Assembly: GCA_963696385.1 (NCBI GenBank)
Contig: CAVOKF010000006.1
Location: forward strand, 352,001 to 416,000
DNA from: an uncultured delta proteobacterium
Lineage (GTDB): Bacteria > Myxococcota_A > Polyangia > Polyangiales > Polyangiaceae
Direction: 5' to 3'
Length of the DNA: 64,000 nt
Below, one piece after another: positions 8,213 through 46,448 of the stretch (positions within the stretch are counted from its first letter, which is position 1; every line of letters begins with the position of its first letter). A model generated the notes under the pieces. It saw only the letters and a program-made list of their open reading frames with translations, was not told the DNA's origin and did not search any database. Position numbers and translations under genes: made by a program.

Positions 8213-8214
8213 GC

Positions 8215-8667
8215 GTGGAGTCGCTCGAACGAGTCCTGCGAGAGCATCCGTTCATGCGCGATCTGAGCGATGAGCACGTGCACATCCTGGTCGGCTGCGC
8301 ACAGAACGTTCGATTTGCGCCGGGCGAATTCATGGTGCACGAAGGAGACGAAGAATCGACCTTCTATCTGGTCCGCGAGGGTTCCATTTCGCTCGAGAGC
8401 CACATCCCGGGTCGTCGTCCCGCAACGGTCGAAACGCTCGGTCCGGGCGATGTCCTCGGCGTGTCGTGGATGTTCGCGCGAGCGCGCGCGCACGTCGACG
8501 CGCGCGCTCGAGAGAGTGTCCTCGCCTTCGCGCTCGACGGGTCGTGCCTTCGCGCGAGGATCGCCACCGACGATGCGCTCGGCCATGCGCTCGCGCGCCG
8601 ATTGCTCGAGCTCACCTATCGCCGGCTCGAACGCCTGCGATTGCAGAACCTCGACGTGTACCGGTGA
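8215..8667 (+). CDS. Stand-alone cyclic nucleotide-binding domain protein
   Basis: F.PGE....[20 protein letters not shown] cNMP-fold motifs; no HTH; GTG start 2 nt after the hyhB stop. Confidence 0.85.
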
Positions 8668-8671
8668 GCGC

Positions 8672-11555: not shown

Positions 11556-12025
11556 CGCTCATCGTGGGAATCGGCAATGCCTACGCGGGCGACGACTCGG
11601 TGGGGCTCGTCGTCGCCAAGCGGCTGTGCGCGGCGGGGTTCGATGCGGTGGCCGCTCCGGATGTTTCCGCCATCGTGACCTTGCTCGCGGCGTCCGATCG
11701 CGTGGTCGTGGTCGATGCCGTGGTCGGCAGAGGCCGTGCCGGAAGGGTCGTCGAGTTATCCGAGCACGATCTCATCGGCGAAAGCGATCCGCGCTCGGCG
11801 GACGGCACTCGCTCCACCGCCCGGCGAGTCTCGTCGCACGGCATGGGGATTGGCCAGGCCCTCGCGCTGGCGCGGGCTCTCGGCGGCAACACGTGTGCAC
11901 GAGACGTGCGCGTCGTCGGAATCACCATCGATCCGCCGCGGGCCGCCAGTGCTGCCTTGAGCGCTCCCGTCGCCCTGGCGGTCGAGCGGGCGGTTGCCGT
12001 AGCGCAAAGGCTCGCGAGGGACTGA
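11552..12025 (+). CDS. Hydrogenase maturation endopeptidase (HyaD/HycI family)
   Basis: VGIGN...GDD..G, VVVDAV, SSHG motifs; ATGA overlap with the large subunit. Confidence 0.88.
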
Positions 12026-12029
12026 ACGC

Positions 12030-12374
12030 ATGCACGAAGCGCAGCTTGCCCGTGGCATTCTTCGCGAGGTCCTCGCGCGCGCCGCCACACTGGGCGCCGA
12101 GCGTGTCCTCGCCGTGCGAGGCTGGATCGCCGAGACCGAGGCGCTGTCTCGAGACAGCCTCGTCTTGTCGTTTACGGCCATGGCGCAGGGCACGCCGGCA
12201 GAAGGCGCCCGGCTCGATCTCTCGGTCGAGCACGTGGCGGCGCGCTGCCGTGGCTGCCATGCAGAATACCTGCCCTGTCACGGCATGCTCGTGTGTCCGT
12301 GCTGCGGCGGCAGCGAGGCCGAGGTGCTCGGGCGCACCGGGATCGCCATCGAAACGATGGACGTGGAGCCTTGA
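12030..12374 (+). CDS. hypA: Nickel metallochaperone HypA
   Basis: MHE N-terminus; two CxxC motifs (CRGC, CPCC). Confidence 0.92.
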   Translation: MHEAQLARGILREVLARAATLGAERVLAVRGWIAETEALSRDSLVLSFTAMAQGTPAEGARLDLSVEHVAARCRGCHAEYLPCHGMLVCPCCGGSEAEVLGRTGIAIETMDVEP

Positions 12375-14651
12375 TCCGGGTCGCGCTCACGGCGCGCGGC
12401 ATCTTGCAGGGCGTCGGTTTTCGCCCCTTCGTCGACCGGCTCGCGCGAAGCATGGGGCTTGGCGGCCACGTGCAGAACACGGCCGACGCGGTTCAGATTG
12501 AAGTCGAGGGTCCCCCAGACCGGATCGCGGCCTTCGTGCTTGCCGTGCGGATCGACTTGCCGACCGGCGCCCTGCTCGTCGATATGGCCACAGAGCGCAA
12601 GCCGACTCAGGGCACGCCCACGTTCTCGATCCGCGCGAGCGCGACGTCGCCGGGGGCACGCACGGCTTCGCCGGCCATCCCACCCGACATCGCGCCGTGC
12701 GGGCCTTGCCTCGAAGAGATCGCAACGCCGGGTGGACGCCGGCACGCGTATCCGTTCACCAGTTGCGCGTCGTGCGGCCCGCGCTTCACCATCGTGGTCG
12801 GCACCCCCTACGATCGCGATCGCACGAGCATGCACCCTTACCCGCTCTGTGCGGCGTGCGCTTCGGAGTACGACGACGCGGCGGACCGCCGGTATCACGC
12901 GCAGTCGATCGCGTGCCCCCGGTGCGGCCCCGCGCTGGTCGCCCGCGACGGCCGCGGATCCGTGGTCGCCCGCGGCCGGGCGGCGCTCGACGCCGCCGCC
13001 GAGGCGTTTCGCGCGGGAGCGATCTGCGCCGTCAAGGGGGTCGGCGGCTATCAGCTGATGGTCGACGCTTGCGCCGAGTCGGCGGTCGCCGAATTGCGCC
13101 GCCGGAAGCAGCGGGATGCGAAGCCGTTCGCGGTCCTCTTTGCCGATCTGGCCGCGGTCGAGCGGCGCTGCACGCTCGTCGCGGCCGAGCGCGAGGCGCT
13201 CTGCTCGCCGGCAGCGCCCATCGTGCTCGTCCTGACGCGGCCGGACGCGGATCTCGGCCCCTTCGGTGGCCTTCGGGTCCGTCCTGACGGGAGCGATGCT
13301 GCCGGCGTCGCCGCTGCATCATCTGCTCGCGCACGAATTCGGCGGTCCGCTCGTGTGCACGAGCGGCAACGTGTCGCGCCAGCCGCTCTGCACCGAGGAC
13401 GTCGACGCCATCGAGCGGCTCGGCCCGATCGCGCATCGCATCGTGTCGCACGATCGACGTATCGTGCGGCCCGCGGACGATTCCGTCGTCCGCGTCACGG
13501 CCTTCGGCACCACGGTGATCCGCCGGGCGCGCGGATTCGTGCCGCATCCGTTCGGCCGGACGCATGGCGGACCTCCGATCGTCGCGCTCGGGGGTCATCT
13601 CAAGTCGACCGTAGCGGTCGCGGCCGGAGACTCCATCGTGGCCAGCCAGCACTTGGGCGATCTCGACGACGAGCGCACGCGGCAACTGCTCGCCGTGACG
13701 GTGGACGACCTCACCCAATTTCTGGCCGTCCGGCCGGAAATCGTGGCTTGCGATCTCCACCCCGACTACGCGTCGACGCATCTCGCCGAGGATCTCGCGC
13801 GACGCTGGGGAGCGCGGCTCGAGCGGGTGCAACATCACGCCGCGCACGTCGGGGCCGTCATGGCCGAGCACCGCTTGCGCGGCCCGGTGCTCGGGCTCGC
13901 GTGGGATGGCGCGGGCTACGGCGACGACGGCACGCTCTGGGGCGGCGAGGCGCTTTCGTTCGACGGTGCGCACTGCAGGCGAATCGCCCATCTGCGAACG
14001 TTCGCTCTTGCCGGCGGAGAGCGCGCGACGCTCGAGCCGCGCAGAGCCGCGCTCGGGCTGCTCGAAGCCGTCGGCGAGGCCCACCGCGCTCCCGCGTTCG
14101 AGGAGCGGGAACGGGACCTGCTTTTGCGGATGGTCGCGCGAGGCGTGCAGGCGCCGCGGACGAGCAGCGTGGGTCGCCTCTTCGACGCCATCGCTGCGGT
14201 TGCGGGCGCCCGCGTGCGATGCGATTTCGAGGGCCAGGCCGCCGCGGAATTCGAACATGCGGCGCGCGGCGATCTCGTCGCTACGCCCTACCCGATGGAG
14301 ATCCGCGGCGATACACCCCCTTACGTGATCGATTGGGAGCCGCTTTTGCGCGCCGTCCTTCGCGATCGCGATCGCGGCCTGGCAGTGGCCGAGATCAGCC
14401 GATCCTTCCATGCCGCGCTGGCGGGTGCGGCGCTCGCGGTGGCCGAGCGCGCGGGCATGGGCAAGGTCGCGCTCGGGGGCGGATGCTTCCAAAACGCGCG
14501 GCTGCTCGCGGCCGTCAAGGTGCGGCTCGAGTCGCGCGGCTTCGACGTGTACGCGGCCACCCGCATTCCGCCCAATGACGGTGGTCTTTCGGTCGGACAG
14601 GTTCACGTGGTAGGGGCAAGGCTGCACGATGTGTCTGGCGATACCCGGTGA
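12371..14651 (+). pseudogene. hypF: Carbamoyltransferase HypF with a +1 frameshift near 13256
   Basis: QGVGFRPFV, Zn fingers and KGVGGY in the first frame; MLP..PLH, TSGN, CDLHPDY, QHHAAH, DG.GYG.DG..WGGE and PPNDGG in the second; removing one G (CTC-G-GCC) gives DLAPSVA. Confidence 0.88.
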
Positions 14652-14856
14652 AGTTCTCACGGTCGACCACGGCGATTTGCGCACCGGGCGCGTCTCGTTC
14701 GGCGGCGTGGTCAAAGTCATCTGTCTCGAGTACGTGCCCGAGGCGGGGCCCGGAGATTACGTGCTCGCGCACGCCGGTTTCGCCATCGCGCGCGTCAGCG
14801 AGGAGCATGCGCAGAGCGTGCACCGCTACCTCGCCGAGATCGAGACGACCGCGTGA
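14629..14856 (+). CDS. hypC: HypC chaperone
   Basis: [19 protein letters not shown]. Confidence 0.95.
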
Positions 14857-15941
14857 AATACGTCGACGAGTACCGCACCCGGCAGGGCGGCATCGCGTAC
14901 CGCGACGCCATCGCGCGGATCGTGACCCGACCGTGGACGATCATGGAAGTGTGCGGCGGGCAGACCCACACGATCGCGCGGTTCGGCATCGAGGACCTTT
15001 TGCCCGACACCGTGTCGCTCTTGCACGGCCCGGGCTGCCCCGTGTGCGTGACGCCGGTCGAGGCCATCGATCGAGCGGTGAGCATCGCCCGGCAGCCGGG
15101 CGTCGTCTTTTGTTCGTACGGCGACATGCTTCGGGTCCCCGGCTCCGAGCAGGACCTGCTTGCCGTCAAGGCCGCCGGGGGCGACGTGCGGGTCGTGTAC
15201 TCCCCGCTCGACGCGATCGAACTCGCCCGGAAGATTCCCGATCGACACGTGGTGTTTTTCGCGGTCGGCTTCGAGACCACCGCGCCCGGTCACGCGATGG
15301 CCGTACTCGAAGCGCACCGATGGGGGCTCACGAACTTCTCGGTCATCGTGTCCCACGTCCTGGTCCCGGCGGCACTCGAGCGGATCCTGAGCGCGCCACA
15401 ACGTCGCGTTCAGGGCTTTCTCGCCGCCGGTCACGTCTGCGCCATCATGGGTATCCGGCAGTACGAGCCCATCAGCCGGCGTCATCGGGTGCCCATCGTC
15501 GTGACGGGCTTCGAGCCCATCGACATTCTGCAGGGGGTTCACATGGCGATCACCCAGCTCGAGGCCGGGCGTGCGGAGGTCGAGAACCAGTACGGCCGCG
15601 CGGTTCGCGGCGAGGGCAATGTTCGCGCGCGCGCCGCGATCGACGAAGTCTTCGAGGTGGGCGCCCGGGCTTGGCGCGGCATCGGCACGATCCCCCATAG
15701 TGGCTTTCGCCTGCGAGCCAAGTACGCCGCATTCGACGCCGAGCAACGATTCGACGTGGCCCAGGTGCAAGGACGTGAATCGCCCGAGTGCATCGCCGGA
15801 CTCGTGCTGCAGGGGCTCAAAAAGCCGAGTGAGTGTCCGGCATTCGCGTCGCGCTGTACGCCCGACGCGCCGCTCGGTGCCACGATGGTCTCGGGCGAGG
15901 GCGCCTGCGCGGTCCATTTCCGTTATCGAAAGCAAGCATGA
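14853..15941 (+). CDS. hypD: HypD
   Basis: [35 protein letters not shown]. Confidence 0.96.
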
Positions 15942-16987
15942 ATGACGACGCGTTTCGCCTCGCTTGTCCTCTGCCGAACCCTTCGGGTGCGATCCAACTC
16001 GCCCACGGAGGAGGCGGACGCGCCATGCATCGCTTGCTCGACGACCTGCTTCTCAGCGTGGTGCACAGCCCGCCTTTAGCCGAGCGCCACGACAGCGCCG
16101 TCATCGACGTGGGTGAGCAGCGGATCGCGTTCACGACCGACGGGTACGTCGTCCACCCTCTGTTCTTTCCGGGCGGCGACATCGGAAGCTTGGCCGTGTT
16201 CGGCACGGTCAACGATCTGGCCATGGCCGGGGCGCGTCCTTTGGCGCTGTCTTTGGGGCTCATTCTCGAAGAAGGATTGCCCATCGAGACCGTCGGGCGC
16301 ATCGCGGCTTCGGTTCAGCGGGCGTGCGAAGCCGTCGGCGTGCGCGTCGTGACGGGAGACACCAAGGTCGTCGATCGGGGCAAAGGCGACGGCGTGTACG
16401 TGACGACCTCCGGGATCGGAGTCGTGCCGGCCGGCATTCGTGTTTCGCCCGGGCGCATCGCTTCAGGCGATGCCGTGATCGTCAATGGCGATCTGGGCCG
16501 CCATGGCGTCGCGATTCTCGCCACGCGCGAGCACCTCGCGTTCGAAACGACCATCCTCAGCGACTGCTCGCCGCTCGTCGAGCCGGTCCAGGCCTTGCTG
16601 GACGCCGGGGTGGACGTGCACTGCTTGCGTGACCTCACGCGCGGTGGCCTCTCGTCGGCTCTGAACGAACTGGCGCGCGCAGCCAACGTGACGATTACCC
16701 TGGACGAGCTCTGCGTGCCCGTGTCGAGCGAGGTGTCCGCGGCCTGCGAGATTCTCGGACTGGATCCGCTTTATGTGGCGTGCGAGGGGCGAATGGCGGT
16801 CTTCGTGCCGGAAGAACAGTCTGCGCGCGCGGTCGAGATCCTGCGCGCGTCCGGGGCATGTCCGAACGCCGCGCGCGTCGGGTCGGTCGAAGATCGCGGG
16901 GGTTCTCATGTCGTGATGCGCACCTGTCTCGGGGGTCGCCGCGTCGTCGATATGTTGAGCGGGGAGCAGTTGCCGCGAATCTGCTGA
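15938..16987 (+). CDS. hypE: HypE
   Basis: [39 protein letters not shown]-terminal GEQLPRIC. Confidence 0.96.
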
Positions 16988-16996
16988 GGCCGAGGG

Positions 16997-17058
<62 letters not shown>

Positions 17059-17444: not shown

Positions 17445-17520
17445 CGACCGACGATCGGCGGCATGCAGAACTTGCGGGTCCGTGCACCGATCGCGCGGGA
17501 GATTCGACGCGGCAAGCTCT

Positions 17521-18330
17521 TCAACAGTGCAGATGCGCGCAGTCGGCAACCGGCGCGCAGAGCCCACAGCTTGGGTCGCAGCACACCGAACCGACGTTGC
17601 AGGTGCTCATCATTCCGCAGGCTTGACTGGATGGGTACGTGGGCCCGTCGTCGCACGCGACCTGACTGCACTCCACGCCCGGGGGAGCGCAGGTTCCACA
17701 GCTCGGATTGCAGCAGACCTCGCCGATCGCGCACGTGTTCGCGCCGCAGAACGCGTTGGTCGGGTACGAGGCCAATCCGCAATCTTGCCGAGTGCACGCT
17801 TCGCCCGGCGCGGCGCAGATTCCGCACGCGGCACTGCAGCAGACGTCGCCGGCCGCGCAGGTCGTGATCCCGCACGGAACGGGCGGCGGGGGTGGAGCCG
17901 GAGGGGGCGTGGATGGGGCCGCAACGGAGGCCGAGGGGGCAGCCCGATCGGCGGGGGCGGCGGAGGAAGCCACGAGATCGGCGGGCGGGGCCGAGGACGC
18001 AACGGCTGCGGCCGCGGCGCCGTCGAACGCGAACGGCTCGTCGGTCGATGCTCGGGCGACGACGGGTGCGAGGTCCTGCGGCAAGGCTGCGACGCGGACC
18101 GACCCGACCGGTAGAGCCGTTCCCTCGGCCCACGAACGCGTCTCTCCTTCCGTTGTGGCCGCAGCTGGGATCACGATGAATTCCCTCACCACGCGTGGGG
18201 ACGTCTCTGTCTCGGCCTTGGGTTTCGGGGAGGCCAGAAGCCGCGTCGCCCCGAACACCGCGAGCGGGGCGAGCACACCGAAGGCGAAAACGACGAACGG
18301 CGACACGCGCGCGCGGTTCCCCGAGTCCAT
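17521..18330 (-). CDS. Membrane-anchored protein with three Cys-rich repeats
   Basis: N-terminal TM; Pro/Ala linker; 3x CG..(.)TC..G.VCC...CG.CA. Confidence 0.7.
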   Translation of the reverse strand: MDSGNRARVSPFVVFAFGVLAPLAVFGATRLLASPKPKAETETSPRVVREFIVIPAAATTEGETRSWAEGTALPVGSVRVAALPQDLAPVVARASTDEPFAFDGAAAAAVASSAPPADLVASSAAPADRAAPSASVAAPSTPPPAPPPPPVPCGITTCAAGDVCCSAACGICAAPGEACTRQDCGLASYPTNAFCGANTCAIGEVCCNPSCGTCAPPGVECSQVACDDGPTYPSSQACGMMSTCNVGSVCCDPSCGLCAPVADCAHLHC

Positions 18331-35713: not shown

Positions 35714-37387
35714 ATGGGCGACGCGTACGGCACGATTTCTGCGTTCGAACGGCTCGCATGGGCCGCGCCAGCCCGGGGGCGCCGGGCCGGCGTCATCCCG
35801 GCGGCGACGAATGGGTGTAGCCCATGTGTCCCGCGATTTTGGGCGATCGTGTTCGGCCTCTTCGTCCTGGTGGGCGCGCCGACCGCCGCCTTGGCGCAGG
35901 GCGCTCCGATCGGCTCGGTGGCCGCGCCGACGGTCGCCGCCGCGCCCGCTCCCGCGCCCGCCCCCGCGATCGATCTCGAGACGCGCGTCGCCGACCTGGA
36001 AGCCTACATCAACAACACCGCTCCCAAGAAACTGTCGGCCCCTGGACCGGGCCACAACGCATGGATGATGGCCTCGAGTGCCCTCGTTCTTTTCATGACC
36101 CTTCCGGGGCTAGCGCTCTTTTACGGTGGCCTCGTCCGCCGGAAGAACGTGTTGTCCGTGATGGCTCAATGCCTTGGTTGCGCAGGCTTCGTGACCATCC
36201 TCTGGTGGCTCTTTGGGTACAGTCTCGTCTTCTCGAGCGGCTCGCCGCTGCTCGGCAGCCTGCGGTTTGCACTGCTCCAGGGAGTCGGCGCGACTCCGAA
36301 CGCGGACTACGGGGCATGGGTGTCGCACAGCGTTTTTGCGATGTACCAGCTCATGTTTGCGATCATCACTCCGGCCCTGATCGTCGGCGCCATCGCCGAG
36401 CGCATGAAATACAGCGCACTCATGCTGTTTCTCTTCGGCTGGATGCTCCTCGTCTATTTTCCGCTCGCGCACATGGTTTGGGGCGTGGACGGTTGGATGA
36501 ACGGCGTCTGGAACGCGCATGCATCGATTAAGGCGATCGACTTCGCGGGCGGAACCGTGGTGCACATGTCCTCGGGCTGGTCCGCGCTCGTTCTCTGCCT
36601 CGTGCTCGGCAAGCGGTCGGGCTTTGGCCAGCGCGCCTTCTATCCGCACAGCCTCGTTCTCACGATGATCGGCACCGGGATGCTCTGGGTGGGGTGGTAC
36701 GGATTCAACGCGGGAAGCGCGGTAGCGGCCGACGGCATCGCGGCCCAGGCATTCATGGCGACGACGCTGGCCACAGCCGTGGCGTCGGTCGTGTGGCCCG
36801 GCATCGAATGGTTGACGCGCGGAAAGCCGACGGTTCTCGGTTTCTGCTCCGGCGCGGTGGCAGGGCTCGTCGTCGTCACCCCCGCCTCCGGTTTCGTGAC
36901 CGCGAACGGCGCGGTCGTCATCGGGCTTCTCGCAGGCACGATTCCGTATCTCGCGTGCACCAAACTGAAGAGTATTTTCAATTACGACGACGCGCTCGAC
37001 ACGTTTGGCGTACACGGGGTCGGCGGAACGCTGGGTGCCCTCGTCACCGGATTTTTGGCCACCCCCGAGGCCAATCCAAATCTCAGCACGAACCTCGCTG
37101 GCTTCGTCGGCAATAGCCTCTGGATCGAGCAGATCAAGGCGATGGGCGTGACCATTGTCCTGGCGAGCGTCGTCACGTTCGTCTTGGCGACCCTCATCCG
37201 AGTCTCGGTGGGGCTCCGACCCGACGCCGAGGCCGAAGAGGACGGCCTCGATCAGATCGAGCATGGCGAGTCGGGGTATCACCTCGATGAGGGCGGAGCC
37301 GTCGCAGGACGGGCAGGGGAACACGCGTCGTTCGGTTCGGTCGCGTCGACAATCGCCGGTGCGGCCGGGTCTCCCAGCGAACAATGA
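35714..37387 (+). CDS. amtB: Ammonium transporter
   Basis: LFYGGLVR.KN, FAIITPAL, ER, DFAGG.VVH, WYGFNAGS, DDALD.FGVHG; start uncertain and probably further downstream. Confidence 0.95.
   Translation: MGDAYGTISAFERLAWAAPARGRRAGVIPAATNGCSPCVPRFWAIVFGLFVLVGAPTAALAQGAPIGSVAAPTVAAAPAPAPAPAIDLETRVADLEAYINNTAPKKLSAPGPGHNAWMMASSALVLFMTLPGLALFYGGLVRRKNVLSVMAQCLGCAGFVTILWWLFGYSLVFSSGSPLLGSLRFALLQGVGATPNADYGAWVSHSVFAMYQLMFAIITPALIVGAIAERMKYSALMLFLFGWMLLVYFPLAHMVWGVDGWMNGVWNAHASIKAIDFAGGTVVHMSSGWSALVLCLVLGKRSGFGQRAFYPHSLVLTMIGTGMLWVGWYGFNAGSAVAADGIAAQAFMATTLATAVASVVWPGIEWLTRGKPTVLGFCSGAVAGLVVVTPASGFVTANGAVVIGLLAGTIPYLACTKLKSIFNYDDALDTFGVHGVGGTLGALVTGFLATPEANPNLSTNLAGFVGNSLWIEQIKAMGVTIVLASVVTFVLATLIRVSVGLRPDAEAEEDGLDQIEHGESGYHLDEGGAVAGRAGEHASFGSVASTIAGAAGSPSEQ
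35728..35742 (+). promoter_or_regulatory. Putative sigma54 promoter for amtB
   Basis: CGGCACG-ATTT-CTGC matches TGGCACG-N4-TTGC. Confidence 0.55.
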
Positions 37388-37486
37388 GCTGATCGCGGAG
37401 TGCGGCCCCGCCCTCGAGGTCGCGCTCGAGGGTCCGCTCAGAGCCAAGGGGTCAGCCGGCGGTGAGGGGCCGGATGAGCTGAACCG

Positions 37487-37520
37487 ACGCAGTCCGTGCG
37501 CATTCGTGCAACCGCCACGC
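37487..37520. promoter_or_regulatory. Tandem GCA-N5-TGC enhancer-like site
   Basis: ACGCA-GTCCG-TGCGC-ATTC-GTGCA-ACCGC-CACGC; same layout at 39622 and 42600. Confidence 0.6.
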
Positions 37521-37639
37521 GGCGCGCGGTGTCCTGCTTCGGCTCGGAAGGCCGCGTAGCGGCGGAGAACGGGCCGCTCTCGCGCGGGGACGCGCGGGGA
37601 GCAGGGGGGAGGCGACGACCGTGAGAACGCGGCAAGGGA

Positions 37640-37656
37640 TTGGAACGGTCGTTGCT
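37640..37656 (+). promoter_or_regulatory. Putative sigma54 promoter for the BON gene
   Basis: TTGGAACG-GTCG-TTGCT. Confidence 0.7.
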
Positions 37657-37696
37657 CAGACGGGGATTCACGACCACGTTTCGAAGGAGGATGCCC

Positions 37697-38371
37697 ATGG
37701 GCCCGAACAAGAAGACCGACGCGCAGATTCAGGGTGAAGTGATCGAAGAGCTCGGTTGGGATACGCGCGTAAAAGCGACCGACGTCGGCGTCGAGGTCAA
37801 CGCCGGGGTCGTCACGCTCACAGGGACGGTCGAGAGTTGGGCGGCGCGACTCGCCGCACAGGAAGCGGCTCATCGGGTCTGTAGCGTGCTCGACGTCGCG
37901 AACGACATCCGGGTCAAGGTCTTCGGCTCTTATGAGCGCAACGATACGGATATTGCGCAAGCCGTGCGCCACGCCCTGGAGTGGGACATTCTCGTGCCGC
38001 ACGAGCGAATCCAGACGACCGTGTCGAACGGCGTCGTGACGCTCGAAGGGAAAGTCGATTTCTGGAGCCAATACGATGACGCAGCGCGCTCCGTCCGAAA
38101 TCTTGCGGGCGTGCGCGAGGTGCGAAATCAAATCATGGTGGAGCCTTCCGCGCCGCGGGTGGCGCCTCAAACGGTGCGAATCGCGATTGAACAGGCGCTC
38201 GAGCGGCACGCCGCGCATGCCGCCAAGCACGTGCAGGTCGCCGTCGCCGACGGCAAGGTCGTTCTCACCGGAGACGTTCCATCGTGGGCCGAGCGCCATG
38301 CCGTCGAGGGCGCGGTCCGCGGGACGCCGGGAGTGCGCAGAGTCGACAACCAATTGCGCATTCAGCTGTAG
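37697..38371 (+). CDS. Triple BON-domain protein (OsmY-like)
   Basis: Three V.V..G.V.L.G.V.......A.......GV..V.N.. repeats; AAGGAGG RBS. Confidence 0.93.
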   Translation: MGPNKKTDAQIQGEVIEELGWDTRVKATDVGVEVNAGVVTLTGTVESWAARLAAQEAAHRVCSVLDVANDIRVKVFGSYERNDTDIAQAVRHALEWDILVPHERIQTTVSNGVVTLEGKVDFWSQYDDAARSVRNLAGVREVRNQIMVEPSAPRVAPQTVRIAIEQALERHAAHAAKHVQVAVADGKVVLTGDVPSWAERHAVEGAVRGTPGVRRVDNQLRIQL

Positions 38372-38537
38372 TGGCCCGAGTCCAGGGATCGAACGGCTTG
38401 CGCGATGCTCGCGCGATGGACCGCGCGGCCAGTCATGGCCCCTCCGCTTCTCGAAGGCTTGCTAGGATGGCTCGGTCTCGTTGGCTCGCCTATCCTCGAG
38501 ATCCATGAAGGGAGCACTCGAAACTAAGTACGACCTC

Positions 38538-38554
38538 CTGGTACGGTACGTGCT
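38538..38554 (+). promoter_or_regulatory. Putative sigma54 promoter
   Basis: CTGGTACG-GTAC-GTGCT. Confidence 0.5.
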
Positions 38555-38567
38555 GAGAGGTCCGCAC

Positions 38568-38924
38568 ATGGTGACGTCGAAGATTCGCGCATGGGCGCTT
38601 GTAGCGATCGGGGCCGGGCTCGTACCGATGGGCTCGGCTTGTTACGTCGAGCCGGCTCCGCCTCCCGCGGTTGCGGTGGCGCCTCCCGTGGTTGCGGAGG
38701 GCTACGACCCTCAATACTACGACGGTTACGTCGTCTACTACGACGCCGTGGGCAGGCCCTTTTACTACGTGGGCGGCGCCGTCGTGTGGGTACCCCCCAC
38801 GTCTCCGTTCTACATCGGCCTCACGGACCACTGGCGCGGCCACCGGGCGGAGTACGCTCGCTGGCACGAGCGCTATGGCGCTCGGTACCGAGGGTACCGA
38901 GACAATGGGCGCCGCCGGCGCTAA
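38568..38924 (+). CDS. Small Tyr/Pro-rich lipoprotein
   Basis: GSAC lipobox; PPP linker; YYDGYVVYYD..G.PFYY....VW; basic tail. Confidence 0.7.
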   Translation: MVTSKIRAWALVAIGAGLVPMGSACYVEPAPPPAVAVAPPVVAEGYDPQYYDGYVVYYDAVGRPFYYVGGAVVWVPPTSPFYIGLTDHWRGHRAEYARWHERYGARYRGYRDNGRRRR

Positions 38925-39051
38925 GGCGCCGCCGGCATCGGGCGCGAATCGACGGCTGCCGTCGACCCGACGCGTTCCGGTTCTTTGGGCTCATGCCCTG
39001 TGGCTAGTTGTCTCCCTTCACGGTTGTCGCGAACGACCCGCAGGTGCCCTC

Positions 39052-39531
39052 ATGACGCTGCAATTGACGTCGCCGAGCTTCGAGCACGAGACGGAGATTC
39101 CCACCGCGCACACGTGCGAAGGATCGGACGTATCTCCGTCGCTGGCCTGGGCCGGCGTCCCCCAGGGGACTCGGAGCCTCGCGCTCATCGTGGACGACCC
39201 CGACGCGCCGGATCCGCAAGCCCCGAAAACGACGTGGGTCCATTGGGTCGTCTACGACATTCCGCCGAGCGCCAAGGGCCTGCCGGAAGGTGCGACGGCC
39301 AAGCAGCTTCCGGCAGGGGCTCGCGAAGGAAGAAACGACTGGAAAACCGTGGGGTACCGCGGTCCATGTCCCCCGATCGGTCGTCATCGGTATTTTCACA
39401 AGCTTTATGCGTTGGACGTGGTCATGGCCGACTTGGGACAGCCCGACAAGGCTGCGCTCGAGAGCGCGATGCGCGGCCATGTTCTGGCTCAAGCCACGTT
39501 GATCGGCACGTACGCGAAGAAGCGCCGCTGA
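39052..39531 (+). CDS. YbhB/YbcL family PEBP (Raf kinase inhibitor-like) protein
   Basis: LTSPSF, DPDAP, WVHWVVY, Y.GPCPP.G.HRY. Confidence 0.95.
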   Translation: MTLQLTSPSFEHETEIPTAHTCEGSDVSPSLAWAGVPQGTRSLALIVDDPDAPDPQAPKTTWVHWVVYDIPPSAKGLPEGATAKQLPAGAREGRNDWKTVGYRGPCPPIGRHRYFHKLYALDVVMADLGQPDKAALESAMRGHVLAQATLIGTYAKKRR

Positions 39532-39621
39532 ACGGATTCGCTTCTCAGGAAGTTCGAATCTCGGGGACTTCGCTTCGCCGATCGCCGTGGCGGCCGCGTC
39601 CCGCAGGAGTCTCGCCCCAAG

Positions 39622-39655
39622 CGGCGCGGACTGCGCGGCCGTGCAAGCCTTGCGT
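39622..39655. promoter_or_regulatory. Tandem GCA-N5-TGC enhancer-like site
   Basis: CGGCG-CGGAC-TGCGC-GGCC-GTGCA-AGCCT-TGCGT. Confidence 0.55.
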
Positions 39656-39731
39656 ACCGGGCTGCACTCGAGTGGCTTCGCCACGTGGCTCGCGGCACGC
39701 CCGCACCCCGCGACCCGCGGCAGCGGAGATC

Positions 39732-39748
39732 CTGGCGCGAGCTTCGCA
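39732..39748 (+). promoter_or_regulatory. Putative sigma54 promoter
   Basis: CTGGCGCG-AGCT-TCGCA. Confidence 0.5.
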
Positions 39749-39762
39749 TCCATGGTTCGGCC

Positions 39763-40878
39763 ATGATCGGCACGCGCACGAGTTTGGCTTCGGCGGTCGC
39801 CGCCGTCGCGGCACTTTTGACGGTCCGCTGTGGCGGTTCTGCAGCCGTCCACGCCGAGCCCGTGGCATCGCCCGCGACGCCACCTTCGGCAACTCTCGCG
39901 ACGGCACCTCCGGCATCGCCGGGGGCGGCACCTGCTGCTGGGTCCGTCGAGCCGAAGGCGGCTTCTCACGAAGTCGGGGACGAGGCGCACCGCCTCGTCA
40001 TTGCGGCGGCCGCGTGCTGGGCCGGCGGAACATGGTCCGATGCACTGGGCGAAGAAGACGCCATGAAGCAGAAGGGCATCGAGGCTCGGTGCAGCGATCT
40101 CGAGAGGCGCGTTTGGGCCGGAGCGCAGGACAAGACGCATTACGAGCAACTTCGCGCCCTCGAGACCAACGCCGTGGCCGACGTCGTCGCGAGGGTCGAC
40201 GAGACCGCGAGAGCGGACCACGTCGATCGCCCAACGCGAGATGCGCTGGTCCGTCTGACGTCGGTCCTGGCCGACGAGCAGCGCGAGCTGATGCTGGCCC
40301 GTCGTGCCGGCGACCGCGTCAAGCGCGACCTCGATCACGAACCGGAGAAGCTCAACGCCAACGAAGTCGAAGCCGTGGTGCCGTTGCGCGCCCATGCCGA
40401 TCTCGAGAAGCTCCTGAAGCTCGACGTCGGCCCCTTTTCGCACGAGGCCCATGCGCTCGGGCTGCTCTGCGCCCTCGACCGACTCGAAATCGCACGCGGC
40501 CTGCCCAAACACTTGAAGCTTTACGCCGTCGCGGAACCCTTCCGGATCCTCTTCGGGGTATCCGTGCCGAATGTGCCCGCGGATGCAACCAGAAAGCTCG
40601 TTCCAGGCACCTGGCTCCGCTTCTTGAGCGACACGGCTGCGGCGGCGGGCTATCCGGTGAGCAACGAGGCCACGACGCCGCGAGAGAAAGATGCGCTCGC
40701 GTGGGCGGGCATGCTCCGAGGTTTCAGCGAAAAGCTGAAGGCCGACACGGACGCTCTGCCGGCCGACACCGAGCTCGCGCATGTCTTGACCGTGGCGCAC
40801 CGACGCTTGGAAGCCGAGTACGACGCGCAGGTCGCCGCCCAGCGGAGCTTGCACACCTCTCCGGTCATGGGGCACTGA
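39763..40878 (+). CDS. Hypothetical alpha-helical lipoprotein
   Basis: Hydrophobic signal ending TVRC-GG; Pro/Ala linker; helical body. Confidence 0.7.
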   Translation: MIGTRTSLASAVAAVAALLTVRCGGSAAVHAEPVASPATPPSATLATAPPASPGAAPAAGSVEPKAASHEVGDEAHRLVIAAAACWAGGTWSDALGEEDAMKQKGIEARCSDLERRVWAGAQDKTHYEQLRALETNAVADVVARVDETARADHVDRPTRDALVRLTSVLADEQRELMLARRAGDRVKRDLDHEPEKLNANEVEAVVPLRAHADLEKLLKLDVGPFSHEAHALGLLCALDRLEIARGLPKHLKLYAVAEPFRILFGVSVPNVPADATRKLVPGTWLRFLSDTAAAAGYPVSNEATTPREKDALAWAGMLRGFSEKLKADTDALPADTELAHVLTVAHRRLEAEYDAQVAAQRSLHTSPVMGH

Positions 40879-40914
40879 CGAAGCCCTTTTTCAGGTTCGT
40901 CTTTCCAGGGCAGC

Positions 40915-40973
40915 GAGATCGGCACGGGCTCTCGGGATCGCCAGGGTGAGATCGGGACGGGCTCTCGGGATCG
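40915..40973. repeat. Direct repeat of 26 bp (GAGATCGG(C/G)ACGGGCTCTCGGGATCG) x2
   Basis: Copies at 40915-40940 and 40948-40973, one mismatch, between convergent genes. Confidence 0.85.
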
Positions 40974-40974
40974 G

Positions 40975-42072
40975 CTACGGATCGGCTGCCGCGCCGAGTT
41001 CGATCCCGATAGCGCGTGCGCAGCGAACGAGTTCGCCCGCCGGGTCGACCGTGTACGCGGCTCGGGGCACCTCGGTGAACGGCACGGAGTCGATCTTGCC
41101 CGATCGGAGCGTGACCATCCGCCCGAAGCGACGCTCGGCACAAAGGTCGGCGGCGTGGGCGCCGAAGCGGCTCGCAAGCAGTCGGTCGGAGGCCGTCGGT
41201 GTCCCGCCCCGCTGCAAGTGGCCGAGTACCGTGACGCGTACCTCGTGGCCGATGTCGCAAGACACGAGTTGCTCCGAGAGCCGTTGCCCGGCGCCGCCCA
41301 ATCGCGCCGGGCGACCCCCGTGCGCCGGCTCGATCTCGCTGGTTTGCCCCCCCCCGGGGCGTGCCCCTTCGCCGATGACGACGATCGAGAAGCGAAGGCC
41401 GAGCGATTCTCGCTCCCGAATCTTCGCCACGACGCGCGCCGGGTCGTAGGCAATCTCCGGGATGAGGACCGCGTCGGCACCGCCCGCGATCCCCGCACGC
41501 AGGGCGAGCCATCCGGCGCTTCGCCCCATCACCTCGACGATCATGACGCGCTGGTGCGCCTCGGCGGTCGAGTGAAGCGCATCGACGGCTCGCGTAGCCG
41601 TTTCGACCGCCGTATCGATGCCGCACGTCTGCTCGGTCGCACCGAGGTCGCCGTCAATCGTTTTCGGAATGCCGATGCAGGGTACGCCGAGATCGCCGAG
41701 GCTCCTGGCGATCGCCATCGTGCCGTCGCCGCCCGCGAGCACCAAGCCGTCGATTCCGTGGGTGGCGAGCGCGCGTATCGACGCCTCCGCTGCGGCCGCA
41801 GGGTTTCCGCCCTCCTTCGCGAACGGATTGCTCCGCGTCGAGCAGCCCAAGATGCTGCCTCCGCGTGGAAGGCTTCCGCGCACGTCCTCGATGCGCAGAG
41901 AAACGATGTCTCCGCGGCCGAGCAGACCCTCGAAGCCGAAGCGGCTGCCGGACACGCGGATCGAACGGTGGGTCGCAGCATGGTAGAAAGCGCGAATCGC
42001 CGCGTTGAGGCCGGGAGCATCGCCTCCGCCCGTCAGAAGGCAGATGTGCAGGTTGCCGCTCGGTGGAGTCAT
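40975..42072 (-). CDS. pfkA: 6-phosphofructokinase (PfkA family, group III-like)
   Basis: TGGGDAPGLNA, GGSILG, GGDGT, PKTID.D, EVMGR, LGHLQRGG.P...DR. Confidence 0.95.
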   Translation of the reverse strand: MTPPSGNLHICLLTGGGDAPGLNAAIRAFYHAATHRSIRVSGSRFGFEGLLGRGDIVSLRIEDVRGSLPRGGSILGCSTRSNPFAKEGGNPAAAAEASIRALATHGIDGLVLAGGDGTMAIARSLGDLGVPCIGIPKTIDGDLGATEQTCGIDTAVETATRAVDALHSTAEAHQRVMIVEVMGRSAGWLALRAGIAGGADAVLIPEIAYDPARVVAKIRERESLGLRFSIVVIGEGARPGGGQTSEIEPAHGGRPARLGGAGQRLSEQLVSCDIGHEVRVTVLGHLQRGGTPTASDRLLASRFGAHAADLCAERRFGRMVTLRSGKIDSVPFTEVPRAAYTVDPAGELVRCARAIGIELGAAADP

Positions 42073-42084
42073 TGGGAGCGGCCT

Positions 42085-42522
42085 TCAACGCTCGAAGCGT
42101 CCGGTCTTTTCGGTGAGCCGGATTCGGAACAGCGTGGTTCGGGCGCCGTGCTGCGCGATACCGTGGACTCGCGGATGCTTCAACGCCGTGGCGCTCGCGT
42201 GCAGCGGACCGAGGCGCGACAAGAGCAGCTCGGCGGCGCGATCCTCGAGCGCCCCGCTCAACTCTTCGTACTGGCCCCAAGCCACCACGCTCGACCAATG
42301 CGAGAGGTCCGAGATGTCGTCGACTTGAAAGCATACGTTCGGGTTCGTCCGCATCGTCCGAATCTTCAACCCGTCCGCCGAATGCGCGTAGGCACACTCG
42401 CCATCGTACGCGTAGGTGATCGGAACGACGTAAGTCCGGTCCTCGGCATGACAGCCGATCCTTGCGACGGTCGCGCGCAGGAGAAGCTGCTCGATTTCGT
42501 CTCGCGTCAATTCTCCGAGCAT
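42085..42522 (-). CDS. Pyridoxamine 5'-phosphate oxidase-like flavin-binding protein (NimA/NimC-like)
   Basis: ARIGC, YVVPITY, G.K...MRTNPNVCFQVD, W.SVV.WG.YEEL, KTGRFE; GGAGG RBS. Confidence 0.9.
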   Translation of the reverse strand: MLGELTRDEIEQLLLRATVARIGCHAEDRTYVVPITYAYDGECAYAHSADGLKIRTMRTNPNVCFQVDDISDLSHWSSVVAWGQYEELSGALEDRAAELLLSRLGPLHASATALKHPRVHGIAQHGARTTLFRIRLTEKTGRFER

Positions 42523-42549
42523 GTCGGGATCCTCCAGCGAAGATTGGAA

Positions 42550-42565
42550 AGCAGGGGTCATACCG
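42550..42565 (-). promoter_or_regulatory. Putative sigma54 promoter for the flavoprotein-pfkA operon
   Basis: Minus strand CGGTATG-ACCC-CTGCT, just upstream of the RBS. Confidence 0.45.
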
Positions 42566-42599
42566 CTCGAACGACTCGGGGGTAGGGGCATTCGGCGCG

Positions 42600-42633
42600 A
42601 TGCAAGACCTGCGCGATACCGCATCCTTTGCAC
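42600..42633. promoter_or_regulatory. Tandem GCA-N5-TGC enhancer-like site between divergent promoters
   Basis: ATGCA-AGACC-TGCGC-GATA-CCGCA-TCCTT-TGCAC. Confidence 0.65.
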
Positions 42634-42686
42634 CGGTTCGGCTCGACGGCGATCGAACATCGCGCGAAATCGGGCCGCGTACCCGT

Positions 42687-42703
42687 TTGGCAAGCTTGGT
42701 GCT
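42687..42703 (+). promoter_or_regulatory. Putative sigma54 promoter for ppsA
   Basis: TTGGCAAG-CTTG-GTGCT. Confidence 0.6.
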
Positions 42704-42717
42704 TCACGACTTGCGCC

Positions 42718-45141
42718 ATGTGGATCAAACAGCTGACCGAGGTAGGGCTTTCGGACGTGTCGAGCGTCGGCGGCAAGAACGCCTCGCTCGGCGAAATGCT
42801 GCGTTCTCTGGTGCCGCTCGGGGTGAAGGTGCCGGACGGCTTCGCCATCACGGCCGACGGTTATCGCCATTTCGTCGACGCGAACGGTCTCGCCGCGCCC
42901 ATTCAGGAAGTGCTCCGCGGCATCCGCAAGGGCGACGTGGACGACCTGGTGCGCCGCAGCGATCGAATCCGCGAGCTCATGACCCGCGCGCCGATGCCCG
43001 CCGATCTGGAGAGTGAGATCTCGCAAGCCTACGACGGGTTGGCGCGAGCAGCCCGGAGCGCCGCGCCGGACGTGGCCGTGCGAAGTTCGGGGACGGCCGA
43101 GGATCTGCCGAATGCGAGCTTCGCGGGGCAGCAGGAAACGTTCTTGAACGTGCGGGGGGCGACGGCGGTGATCGATGCCACCCGCAAAGCCTTTGCTTCC
43201 CTCTTCACTCCGCGCGCCATCCACTACCGCGCGGACATGGGGTTCGAGCACATGCGCGTGGCGCTGTCGGTCGGCGTGCAGCGGATGGTGCGATCGGACC
43301 TGGCGAGTGCCGGAGTCATTTTCACGCTCGACACCGAAACGGGACATCGCGGGGTCGTGCTCGTCACGTCGAGCTACGGTCTCGGCGAGAGCGTCGTTCA
43401 AGGGCGGGTCGTGCCCGATCAGTTCGTCGTGCACAAGGATCGGCTGCGCGCGGGCTTCCGACCCCTCGTAAGGCGCAAGCTCGGCGCGAAAGAGAGCCGC
43501 CTCGTCTACGACGAGACGGGTCATCGGGGCGTGCTGACCGAACGCGTGCCGGAAGACTTGCGGAGCCGCTTCTCTCTCGAGGACGACGACGTGATCACCC
43601 TAGCCCAGTGGGCGCTGCGCATCGAAGAGCATTACTCGAGCATTTCCGGTGAAGACGCTCCGATGGACATCGAGTGGGCCAAGGACGGTCGTACGGGCGA
43701 TCTGTTCATCGTGCAGGCTCGAAGGGAGACCGTCCATAGCCGGCGATCGGCGCCTACGATACGGATGTGCAAGCTGTCGAGCCCGGGTCGAGCCCTCGCC
43801 ACGGGTCTGGCGATCGGCGACGCGATCGCGGTCGGGCGCGCGCGGGTGATTCGCGATCCCAGCCGGCAGGCGGACGTCCAAAAAGGCGACGTCATCGTCA
43901 CGGAGATGACCGATCCCGATTGGGAACCGATCATGAAAATCGCGTCCGCCATCGTCACCGATCGCGGCGGGCGGACTTCCCATGCGGCGATTGTCGCCCG
44001 CGAGCTCGGGATTCCGGCGATCGTCGGGACAGCCGATGCGACGTCGACCGTCACTCACGGCAGTCCGGTGACCGTCTCGTGCGCCGAGGGCGAGACGGGC
44101 CACGTGTACGACGGCGAGCTCGCGTTCACCGTCGAAGAAGTGGACCCGCGGACGCTGCCCAAGCCCCAGACCCAGATCATGCTCAATGTGGGCGATCCGG
44201 ACAGCGCGCTCAAACTCGCCATGCTTCCGTGCGACGGCGTCGGCCTTGCGCGCATGGAGTTCATCTTCGCGAGTTGGGTGGGCGTGCATCCTCTGGCGCT
44301 GACGCGCTACTCGACCCTCACCCCGGAGGTGCGCCGCGAGGTCGATGCGAGGACGGGCGGCGCTGCCGACAAGACCCAGTACTTCATCGATCGCTTGTCG
44401 CAGGGAATCGGCATGCTGGCTGCGGCTTTTTGGCCGCGGCCGGTCATTTTGCGTTTCAGTGACTTCAAGACGAATGAATACGCGCGTCTCGTGGGCGGCG
44501 CCTCGTTCGAGCCGCACGAGGAAAACCCCATGCTCGGCTGGCGCGGTGCCAGTCGCTACTACCATCCAAACTACAAAGAGGGATTCTTGCTCGAGGTGGC
44601 GGCGGTGCGGCGCGTCCGAGAGACCTTCGGTCTGACCAACCTGAAGGTGATGGTTCCGTTCTGTCGCACGCCGGCGGAAGGCGAGCGCGTGCTCCTGACG
44701 ATGAAAGAGGGGGGACTCGTGCAAGGGCAGGCAGGACTCGAGGTCTACGTCATGGCCGAGATCCCCTCGAACATCCTGATGGCGGAGGCGTTCGCGAAGC
44801 TCTTCGACGGCTTCTCCATCGGGTCGAACAATCTCACGCAGCTCACGCTCGGCGTGGACCGGGACTCGATGACCGTCGCTCCGCTGTTCGACGAGCGGAT
44901 TGCCGCGGTCACGTGGTCGTGTGCGCACCTTATCGAGGTGGCTCATGCTCACGGGCGCAAGGTGGGCATCTGCGGCCAGGCCCCGAGCGACTACCCGGAT
45001 TTCGCGGCGCTCCTCGTGGAGGCAGGGATCGACTCGCTGAGTCTCAACGCCGACGCGTTCGCGCGCACGCGAACTCGGATCTTCGAAGTCGAGCAGTCGA
45101 AAAAGGGTCGTGGGGCGACCCTCGGGGGTCAGAGCACGTAG
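42718..45141 (+). CDS. ppsA: Phosphoenolpyruvate synthase
   Basis: [69 protein letters not shown]. Confidence 0.96.
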
Positions 45142-46448
45142 CGAAGGACGAGATTTTCGAGCATCTCCTGCCGGCCCGAACGGCGTGCCGGCTCGATTTT
45201 CTGGGACAGGACGCGATCGGACAGATCGGCGAGCGACAGGCGCCCGTTCAGGATGTCGCTCCCGAACGGGGTCTCCCAGCCGGCGTATCGCTCGTCCAGA
45301 AATGCCTGCAGCTTGCCGTCGTCGAGCATCCGGTCGGCGATGAGCAGTGCCTTGGCGAGCACGTCGATGCCGCCGACGTGCGCGTGAAAGATGTCCTGCA
45401 AGTCGATGCTCGGGCGCCGAAGCTTCGCGTCGAAGTTGAAGCCGCCCGTCGTGAAGCCACCCGCTTGCAAAATGCGTCGCAATACGAGCGCGAGCTCGGC
45501 GGGATCGTTCGGAAACTGGTCGGTGTCCCAGCCGAGCAGCGTGTCGCCGCGGTTGATGTCGACGCTGCCGAACACGCCGTTGGCGATGGCGTACGCGATC
45601 TCGTGTTCGAACGAGTGTCCGGCAAGCGTCGCGTGGTTCGCCTCGATGTTCAGTTTGAAGTCGCCGCCATCCAAATCGTAGCGCTGCAAAAACGCGAAGA
45701 CCGTCGCCGCGTCGAAGTCGTACTGATGCTTGGTCGGCTCCATCGGCTTCGGTTCGATGAGCAGCGGCCCTTTGAACCCGATCTTGTGTTTGTGCTCGGC
45801 CACGAGCGCCAAGAAGCGCCCGAGTTGATCGAGCTCGCGCTTCATGTCGGTGTTGAGCAGGGTCTCGTAGCCCTCCCGGCCGCCCCAGAGGACGTAATTC
45901 TCTCCGCCGAGCTGCTGGGTGACTTCGAGCGCCTTTTTTACTTGAGCGCCCGCGTAGGCGAAGACGTTGGGGTCGGGATTGGTCGCCGCCCCGGCCAAAT
46001 AGCGGGGGTGGCTGAAGAGGTTCGCCGTTCCCCAGAGAAGCTTGACGCCCGTGCGCTGCATATGCCCGGCCATCACCTCCACGATGCCGTCGAGCGTGGC
46101 ATTCGTCTCCGAAAGGCTCGACGCCTCCGGGGCGACGTCGCGGTCGTGGAAGCAGAAGTAGCGGACGCCGAGCTTTTCGAACAGTTCGAACGCCGCGGCC
46201 GCCTTGTCCTTCGCGAGCGCCACGGCGTCGTCGCCGCGCTGCCAGGCGCGATTGAACGTGCCGGCGCCGAACACGTCGGACCCGTCGCCACAGAGCGTGT
46301 GCCAGTAGCAGACGGCCAGCCGTAACTGATCTTCCATGCGCTTGCCGCGCACGATGCGATCCTTGTCGTAGAAGCGATACGCAAGACCCTCCGCCTCGGG
46401 TCCCCGGTATCGAACGGGTTCGAGGCCTGGAAACGCTGGCTTGGGCAT
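45129..46448 (-). CDS. xylA: Xylose isomerase (class II)
   Basis: [46 protein letters not shown]. Confidence 0.98.

Follow-up and report, generated by a model that had tools for sequence, protein, structure and literature searches.

We analysed a stretch of 64,000 nucleotides (here called the window; C6:352001-416000) from the genome of an uncultured delta proteobacterium of the family Polyangiaceae (GCA_963696385.1). This genome, G000, comprises 6.94 Mb in 8 contigs with 66% G+C and is 96% complete, and its closest named homologues belong to metagenome-assembled Polyangiaceae; other G numbers denote further genomes, L numbers fetched loci and C a contig. The window encodes a BON-domain protein, a predicted lipoprotein, a flavin-binding protein, a phosphofructokinase (pfkA) and a phosphoenolpyruvate (PEP) synthase (ppsA). 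Three of the intergenic regions concerned share one 34-bp layout, in which two 15-bp palindromes are set 19 bp apart, with sigma54-type promoter boxes nearby (Table 1). A preliminary description, made from the letters of the window, had proposed that these pairs are enhancers of a single sigma54 regulon. The three 34-mers at 37487, 39622 and 42600, with their central TGCGC-N4-(G/C)(T/C)GCA, were present letter for letter as given there, and Pfam and NCBIfam searches and gene calls returned the same identities for the five genes. Four of the six 15-mers have a perfect GCA-N5-TGC core (both at 42600, with one imperfect core each at 37487 and 39622), and an additional weak 15-mer lies at 39601, near the second pair.

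Enrichment of the motif and its conservation upstream of orthologues, which the preliminary description had put forward as checks, were both found. Non-coding DNA of G000 was scanned with the pattern YGCA-N5-TGCR taken twice, allowing at most one mismatch in 16 positions, at periods of 15-44, the period being the start-to-start distance of the paired 15-mers (period 19 is a gap of 4 bp). Genes were called with a purpose-written dicodon script (5,886 genes), so "non-coding" is approximate and takes in gene ends. Period 19 was the only enriched spacing: it gave 14 matches, one of them accounted for by a simple repeat, compared with a mean of 1.3 and a maximum of 6 at the 29 other periods. Periods 29 and 30 were at background level in G000, and period 29 was at background across the genus. 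A matrix that was started from the window's three sites and then iterated found 28 matches against about 4, a result that is circular for period 19. A matrix based on 32 pairs of sites in other lineages (periods 28-39), which had themselves been selected using the G000 matrix, found 23 period-19 matches against a mean of 2.0; the two matrices correlate at 0.94. Among 1.86 million non-coding positions, the window sites at 42600, 39622 and 37487 rank 3, 31 and 51. At a score of at least 15, G000 has 36 non-coding tandem sites, 33 of which lie upstream of a gene. These analyses indicate that about 30 intergenic paired GCA-N5-TGC palindromes at 19 bp form one genome-wide set. A classic NtrC site is a wider palindrome and was ruled out, because the 5-bp core spacer does not fit. 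The amt gene, oriented towards site 1, has its end upstream of that site.

The tandem sites are accompanied by candidate sigma54 promoters. G000 has rpoN, and boxes were scored against the 13 positions of the sigma54 consensus. A box matching at least 9/13 positions was found 15-150 bp from 22 of the 33 sites, compared with 540 of 3,802 random non-coding positions (14%); at the stricter threshold of at least 10/13, the counts were 19/33 and 3.9%. In the window, the GG-N10-GC boxes reported at 37640, 39732 and 42687 on the plus strand were recovered, and the minus-strand box starts at 42566, not at 42565 as claimed. The gaps between site and box are 119, 76, 53 and 33 bp, in keeping with the estimate of about 35-120 bp, and 5 orthologues keep the minus-strand box at a distance of 31-33 bp from the site. 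A helical phase relation of enhancer and box was considered and is unsupported (27 distances, R=0.21 at 10.5 bp; 32% of control draws match). A scan of positions 37300-45300 for sigma70 promoters found 0 where 0.7 were expected, and was uninformative.

Period-19 sites (score of at least 15) recur upstream of 9/13 ppsA orthologues, 9/19 lipoprotein homologues and 2/4 BON orthologues. For the flavin-binding gene the site was present upstream of 7/17 homologues, namely, all 7 at 69% identity or above and 0/10 more distant ones. No such site was found in 40 control stretches inside the lipoprotein, flavin-binding and BON genes. Six of the ppsA and flavin-binding cases have one divergent site in common and are not independent, and in three ppsA cases the site lies at most 75 bp from the start, with no sigma54 box.

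Judged by its letters, the window motif is the published site of NmpR from Myxococcus xanthus. The sequence GCGCA-N5-TGCGC, which the preliminary description had named as similar, is in print: NmpR binds it at 7 promoters, with a gap between paired sites of 14-15 bp at 5 of the 7, of 5 bp at pilR and of 24 bp at nmpU, and both sites have a perfect core at all bound promoters (PMC11841059). The reported targets are a CBS protein, a universal stress protein (USP), a P-type ATPase with cbb3 oxidase, hemN-hemerythrin, pilR and the nmp genes, and one reporter rises under hypoxia (PMC11841059). NmpR is described in the M. xanthus work as binding as two dimers and activating sigma54 promoters under hypoxia. 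Upstream of it stands a relay in which oxygen-bound NmpU phosphorylates the NmpS receiver and turns NmpS off; without oxygen, NmpS phosphorylates NmpR (PMC6211767).

The activator had been expected to lie outside the window, and a candidate was found 21.7 kb past the window end, at C6:437717-439105, adjoining a globin kinase gene. The protein has REC, AAA and HTH_8 domains, a GSFTGA loop and the phospho-Asp. The order at this locus is the protoglobin sensor gene (C6:435939-437555), the activator gene (C6:437717) and a CBS gene, with a diverging USP gene, and tandem sites precede each of these genes (C6:435885, 437653 and 439145). As a stand-in for the M. xanthus protein, we used the NmpR of locus L190, which was recognised through primer-encoded peptides, gene order and site gaps; the primer-derived search pattern led to 28 metagenome loci, 17 with an NmpR-type activator. 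L190 carries genes for a CBS protein, the activator, nmpS, nmpT and nmpU, and its sites at periods 29 and 39 equal the published gaps of 14 and 24 bp. The best match of this NmpR in G000 is the C6 activator (56%, 502 bits), which has the same recognition helix and belongs to the same tree group.

The number of sites follows the presence of the activator. Among 30 genomes of the genus, the median number of period-19 sites is 14.5 in the 22 that have a C6 activator orthologue and 2.5 in the 8 that lack one, a comparison in which kinship inflates any test. The latter median remains 2.5 without the unpublished genomes G010 and G027, and a reversed-pattern control gave medians of 8 and 8.5. Of 23 copies of the activator gene in the genus, 18 are preceded by a period-19 site whose end falls a few bases short of the ribosome-binding site, and another 4 retain one 15-mer there. 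The sites of the activator and sensor genes lie 30 and 20 bp from the start, which leaves no room for a sigma54 promoter; at the activator gene we therefore infer self-repression, the alternative being a downstream enhancer. The C6 activator very probably binds these sites.

On the sequences compared here, one activator clade prefers a spacing of 19 bp, one DNA turn less than the 29-30 bp of Myxococcus. The clade with the C6 activator (20 of 84 rows in a quick tree; Shimodaira-Hasegawa-like approximate likelihood ratio test [SH-aLRT], 98) uses period 19-20. Outside it, 25 of 28 loci with an NmpR-type helix have a pair at period 28-31 and none has one at 19; neither spacing is present at 21 loci in families with an activator of another helix type, the activator having been found at 15 of them. 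Periods 19-20, 29-30 and 39-40 differ by one DNA turn each. Several observations blur this division. L097 has no site and L153 has pairs at both 20 and 30; G035 and G050 belong to the activator clade and have no genome-wide excess at period 19, and G032, outside it, has 13 sites at period 19 and 14 at 29. At nmpU, 4 of the 17 stand-in loci, which are of the Myxococcus/Anaeromyxobacter type, use period 19 (three of the 4 being near-identical), compared with 13 at 28-31, and M. xanthus NmpR itself binds a period-20 pair at pilR (PMC11841059). The periods of 19 at some nmpU promoters and of 20 at pilR therefore point to a changed preference and not to a new rule. The linker between the AAA and HTH domains has a median of 24 residues in 20 clade members and 27 in 36 others (three mis-parsed); this is a hint only, because it represents one evolutionary event. 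A separate pair of globin-PAS-kinase and sigma54 activator was noted in other families (L136-L147 and L149), with a different helix and no GCA-N5-TGC pairs.

The sensor next to the activator is a protoglobin-PAS-HisKA-HATPase protein and contains the only protoglobin in G000. The best PDB match of its globin is AfGcHK (5OHE; E 2e-35), and the proximal heme His and distal Tyr are kept. Compared with the L190 proteins, its kinase core shows 43% identity to NmpS and 30% to NmpU. In a tree of 30 of 105 kinase cores, the sensor falls in the NmpS clade (100/99), where its sister is the REC-PAS-kinase NmpS of other Polyangiaceae (98/96). Approximately unbiased (AU) tests rejected both a grouping of the sensor core with NmpU kinases (p-AU 1.8e-7) and one shared origin for 7 globin-NmpS fusions (p-AU 8e-7), results that are weakened in that the trees are unrooted and both groups were named after the first tree had been seen. 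A search of the phylum for globins gave a match in 108 of 301 genomes, from which 60 loci were fetched, picked for family spread and contig size. The globins of fused sensors intermix with NmpU globins from their own lineages, and L100 has a clear junction, at which an NmpU globin is followed by the PAS and kinase domains of the neighbouring NmpS. A search with the sensor sequence across genomes returned only 3 true relatives.

At relay loci one strand carries nmpU, then nmpT, then nmpS, so that one in-frame deletion would make the fusion; deletion is the favoured direction because the reverse needs the same block to be inserted repeatedly. An NmpT query in G000 (96% complete, own gene calls) returned only a 125-aa single REC protein at 34%, with none at the locus, and the kinase-core query matched the sensor alone, with no second NmpS-type core. 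The four-protein relay has likely been collapsed by deletion several times. The relay serves to invert the signal of a sensor that oxygen activates. With the relay gone and the cbb3 oxidase still a target, oxygen binding should inhibit the fused kinase. We lean towards a sensor inhibited by oxygen, opposite to AfGcHK. The register of the linker was tried as a sign of polarity and set aside: the six short-fusion kinds have 21, 27, 32, 35, 51 and 53 residues compared with 26 in the relay, and none is in the relay heptad register, but this has a 40% chance expectation and is uninformative for the PAS-containing G000 sensor. In four other genomes of the genus a second NmpS-like core (57-62%) was noted at G024:C27:62352-66808, G013:C9:51508-55609, G015:C1112 and G008:C3:452378, two of them near a weaker globin match.

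The window genes had been likened to hypoxia regulons, and this likeness extends to the wider target set, which is a low-oxygen set. Annotation covered 101 + 36 of 324 neighbouring genes, those adjoining sites, which were scanned against families. Sites with a sigma54 box precede a CBS-USP-P-type ATPase-cbb3 oxidase cluster and the flavin oxidoreductase gene that diverges from it (C7:633420). Further such targets are two HSP20 genes, a phosphate acetyl/butyryltransferase (PTA), additional CBS and USP genes, the hibernation factor HPF/S30AE, a PCMT-erythromycin-esterase fusion, an extracytoplasmic function (ECF) sigma factor, a REC-GGDEF protein and a second sigma54 activator. Two of these sites (HSP20/PTA and one USP) score 14-15. 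The window adds BON, the lipoprotein (together with its paralogue elsewhere), flavin-binding-pfkA and ppsA. CBS, USP, P-type ATPase-cbb3 oxidase and nmp genes are targets in common with M. xanthus; hemN-hemerythrin and pilR were not among the annotated neighbours of sites, and no search was aimed at them. The targets are probably induced at low oxygen.

Two more matches were noted. One, at nifB (C4:1054132; L020:4132), abuts a strong sigma54 box at distance 0 and would overlap the promoter; it might repress the promoter or be a chance match. The other is the top-scoring tandem site upstream of kdpABC (C6:317050; L005:7050), beside a KdpE-like regulator gene, with a 9/13 box. The nifB, kdpA and C3:721717 (simple repeat) matches were left off the confident target list.

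The explanation that we prefer, with a probability of about 0.7, is that the NmpR-family C6 activator and the globin-PAS-kinase drive a low-oxygen survival programme from these sites. An in-frame deletion across nmpU-nmpT-nmpS would have placed the globin where the inhibitory receiver of NmpS had been. The sensor with oxygen-free heme would phosphorylate the neighbouring activator, which in this form would switch on the sigma54 promoters of low-oxygen survival genes. Direct inhibition of the kinase by oxygen would thus preserve low-oxygen induction of the cbb3 oxidase, USP, HSP20 and hibernation genes. Dimers 19 bp apart would lie on the same helix face as at 29-30 or 39-40 bp and could seed the AAA+ ring, and negative feedback would come from the site that lies against the activator gene's ribosome-binding site. 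A broader proposal, to which we give even odds, is that repeated mid-operon deletions in nmpU-nmpT-nmpS produced an oxygen-inhibited globin kinase that, in one Polyangiales clade, governs a sigma54 dormancy regulon of DosR scale, in which dozens of promoters have paired enhancers shortened by one DNA turn and the AAA-to-HTH linker of the activator is three residues shorter.

Some findings weigh against this explanation. Imperfect GCA-N5-TGC cores are unbound in M. xanthus (PMC11841059), and two window sites have one. Few sites were counted in some activator-bearing genomes (G004, 3; G016, 4; and, in the sister clade, G035, 4, and G050, 3), and the number of sites does not track the globin (median 12.5 versus 7, p=0.23). 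Moreover, 10 of the 22 activator-bearing genus genomes (67-96% complete) gave no globin or kinase-core match and yet kept the sites, so either another input exists or the sensor is unassembled.

This last observation bears on the alternative that survives best, which is nevertheless unlikely: the regulon and activator would be the same, but the sensor would be active with oxygen like AfGcHK or be a minor input, acting as a phosphatase or leaving the low-oxygen signal to another kinase. The hybrid PAS kinase at C1:227936 is an example of such a kinase, and inversion would then be unnecessary. Of 14 loci from sensor-free genomes or second copies, 4 (L244, L248, L249 and L250) have a homologue of it close to the activator, and AfGcHK is oxygen-activated. 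Against this alternative, the sensor has the core and H-box of NmpS, which phosphorylates NmpR; the sensor adjoins the activator in at least 12 genus genomes and in most phylum loci; and an oxygen-activated kinase would switch on the cbb3 oxidase in air. In genus genomes without the sensor (L243-L254), the activator was seen within islands of target genes (cbb3, P-type ATPase, USP, CBS, HPF and pfk).

It is quite improbable that the sites are read chiefly by the paralogue C5:1366786 or by another of the roughly 45 sigma54 activators in the genome. This orphan paralogue (C5:1366786-1368180), which is kept in the genus, belongs to the same NmpR-like group, is 62% identical to the C6 activator with a near-identical helix, and nearly equals it against the L190 NmpR (484 bits), which also tells against our preferred assignment. 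However, the four of the 8 activator-free genomes that have a C5-type paralogue alone carry 1-6 sites, at or below the control except in G027 (5 versus 3) and G010 (2 versus 1), and there is no site or kinase beside the C5 paralogue, the sites clustering round the C6 activator gene.

A chance origin of the sites in DNA of 66% G+C can be dismissed for the whole set: matches at 15/20 positions are common, coding DNA included (37936 in the BON gene), two window sites are moderate and about 4 of the 28 genome-wide matches are expected to be false, but the single-spacing peak, the sigma54 enrichment, the conservation upstream of orthologues and the dependence on the activator stand against chance, which may explain the single sites at 17463, kdp and nifB.

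Table 1. Candidate regulatory elements and genes in the window
Feature	Position	Strand	Remarks
Tandem enhancer 1 (candidate)	37487..37520	none	Two 15-bp palindromes, period 19; first 15-mer strong, second weak
Tandem enhancer 2 (candidate)	39622..39655	none	Second 15-mer strong, first weak
Tandem enhancer 3 (candidate)	42600..42633	none	Both cores perfect; common to two divergent promoters
Fourth tandem match	17463..17496	none	Between two converging genes; function doubtful
Sigma54 -24/-12 box	37640..37656	+	12/13 consensus positions; 11/13 boxes upstream of 3/4 BON orthologues
Sigma54 -24/-12 box	39732..39748	+	11/13; same box variant kept in orthologues
Sigma54 -24/-12 box, flavin-binding gene and pfkA	42550..42566	-	Weak, 8/13
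Sigma54 -24/-12 box for ppsA	42687..42703	+	11/13
Triple BON-domain protein	37697..38371	+	PF04972; OsmY-like, below equivalog cut-off (NCBIfam)
Small lipoprotein-like protein	38505..38924	+	No known family (Pfam, NCBIfam); start uncertain
YbhB/YbcL (RKIP-like) protein	39052..39531	+	TIGR00481; no tandem site of its own
Predicted lipoprotein	39763..40878	+	No Pfam/NCBIfam match; homologues in 18/30 genus genomes
ATP-dependent 6-phosphofructokinase, PfkA family	40975..42072	-	PF00365; NF002872 above cut-off; 13 bp behind flavin-binding gene
Pyridoxamine-5'-phosphate-oxidase-like flavin-binding protein	42085..42522	-	PF12900
Phosphoenolpyruvate synthase PpsA	42718..45141	+	NF005057 and TIGR01418 above cut-off

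The gene behind BON, at 38505, is likely part of the BON transcript, because contigs from RNA libraries span the two genes together, and the YbhB/YbcL gene is possibly read through from BON. The 39763 lipoprotein has a paralogue at C7:619671 that is 40% identical and likewise has a tandem site. The lipoprotein and flavin-binding genes adjoin in G003, with no pfkA between them, and one RNA-library contig (run X3) leaves out pfkA (window 40871-42035); pfkA is therefore accessory. Seven RNA-library runs from four studies contain the stretch. All five window genes have contigs from four runs (three studies), many of them at 99% identity or above, which counts in favour of the preferred explanation. 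The HSP20, REC, CBS and lipoprotein genes of L007, a locus that played no part in choosing the runs, are likewise covered, by contigs from four runs in two studies. Such contigs carry no level, strand or condition, and DNA may be present in these libraries. The enhancers are uncovered among the pieces listed, the bin 37004-37670 is uncovered in four runs, and the ends of pieces fall close to the predicted starts; this pattern was set aside as evidence, since the listing leaves out 151 pieces and the runs had been chosen with this stretch, and depth was not taken to rank genes.

The fourth tandem match, at 17463, had been overlooked in the preliminary description. It scores 21.5, no gene points away from it, and a weak sigma54 match (8/13) lies 46 bp downstream on the plus strand; it could drive an antisense RNA or be a chance match. 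Elsewhere in the window, an operon for a sulfhydrogenase-like (group 3b type) [NiFe]-hydrogenase occupies 7076-16987, with genes for a protease and hypA, F, C, D and E. The frame of hypF changes near 13250-13400, which is a true break or an assembly error. This operon was rejected as a target, since only single weak 15-mers and no tandem site lie upstream. About nine GGGGTC hexamers stand at 17000-17056, directly behind hypE, and at 17580-18330 on the minus strand there is a Cys-rich, Ala/Pro-rich, secreted-looking open reading frame with repeated CC-x-x-x-CG motifs, which was missed by the gene caller. Beyond the window, a cluster at C6:447380-466913 of G000 (L004) resembles a type VI secretion system by eye.

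A regulon of this kind is already known; what is new is the larger, dormancy-type target set, the shifted spacing and the fused sensor of the collapsed relay. Our literature search, which was thin on subscription papers, found no report that places an NmpR regulon outside M. xanthus or describes the 19-bp spacing or the fused sensor; the legend of S2 Fig in PMC6211767 mentions divergent domain architectures. The system resembles NmpRSTU in its paired sites at sigma54 promoters, its REC-AAA-HTH activator with the same helix and the globin sensor at its locus. It differs in having a gap of 4 bp, whereas 5 of the 7 M. xanthus promoters have 14-15, and about 30 sites, compared with 7 promoters. 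It differs also in that no separate REC-kinase NmpS or REC-REC NmpT was found and the sensor is a globin-PAS-NmpS-type kinase. In addition, M. xanthus activates its own nmp genes, whereas here there is no space for sigma54 before the activator and sensor genes.

The Fe(II)-O2 form of AfGcHK, from Anaeromyxobacter sp. Fw109-5, is active and its Fe(II) form inactive (PMC8697598). In AfGcHK and NmpU the globin is joined directly to an NmpU-type kinase, with 26 residues from the globin end to the phospho-His in 26/26 relay sensors. The G000 sensor has instead PAS and an NmpS-type core after the globin, and is predicted to be oxygen-inhibited where AfGcHK is oxygen-activated. In DosS and DosT, oxygen-bound heme keeps the kinase off. 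The same has been reported for FixL (PMC8697598). The logic predicted for our sensor is that of FixL and DosS/DosT, in which the heme sits in PAS or GAF and the regulators are non-sigma54; here, the heme domain is a globin.

The target set recalls two dormancy systems. The lxa locus of Burkholderia cenocepacia includes USPs, alpha-crystallin, phospholipid-binding proteins, phosphate acetyl/butyryltransferase and a cation ATPase (PMC3721108), and the DosR regulon of Mycobacterium smegmatis includes HspX, Fsq, PEP synthase and PfkB (bioRxiv 10.1101/2023.09.11.557286). G000 shares with them a dormancy gene set (two HSP20, USP, CBS, HPF/S30AE, BON, phosphate acetyl/butyryltransferase, PEP synthase, phosphofructokinase, cation ATPase and flavin-binding protein). 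The regulator, motif and sigma factor are unrelated, DosR being a LuxR-type regulator of housekeeping-sigma promoters, and the phosphofructokinase is of the PfkA family here and PfkB there. The Hyh hydrogenase is controlled by DosR, unlike the group-3b-like hydrogenase of the window, which has no site.

The regulon carries the 2025 M. xanthus result into another class of myxobacteria, and the dormancy gene sets of obligate aerobes (DosR, lxa) have in it a sigma54-driven counterpart. The shift from 29-30 to 19 bp offers a natural test of joint change in enhancer spacing and activator geometry. Of more consequence is the wiring: if our reading is true, globin kinases with the same heme domain would have opposite outputs and several independent origins, and may reveal how the sign of a sensor is set. 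It would also mean that a phosphorelay can collapse to a two-component system and keep its logic.

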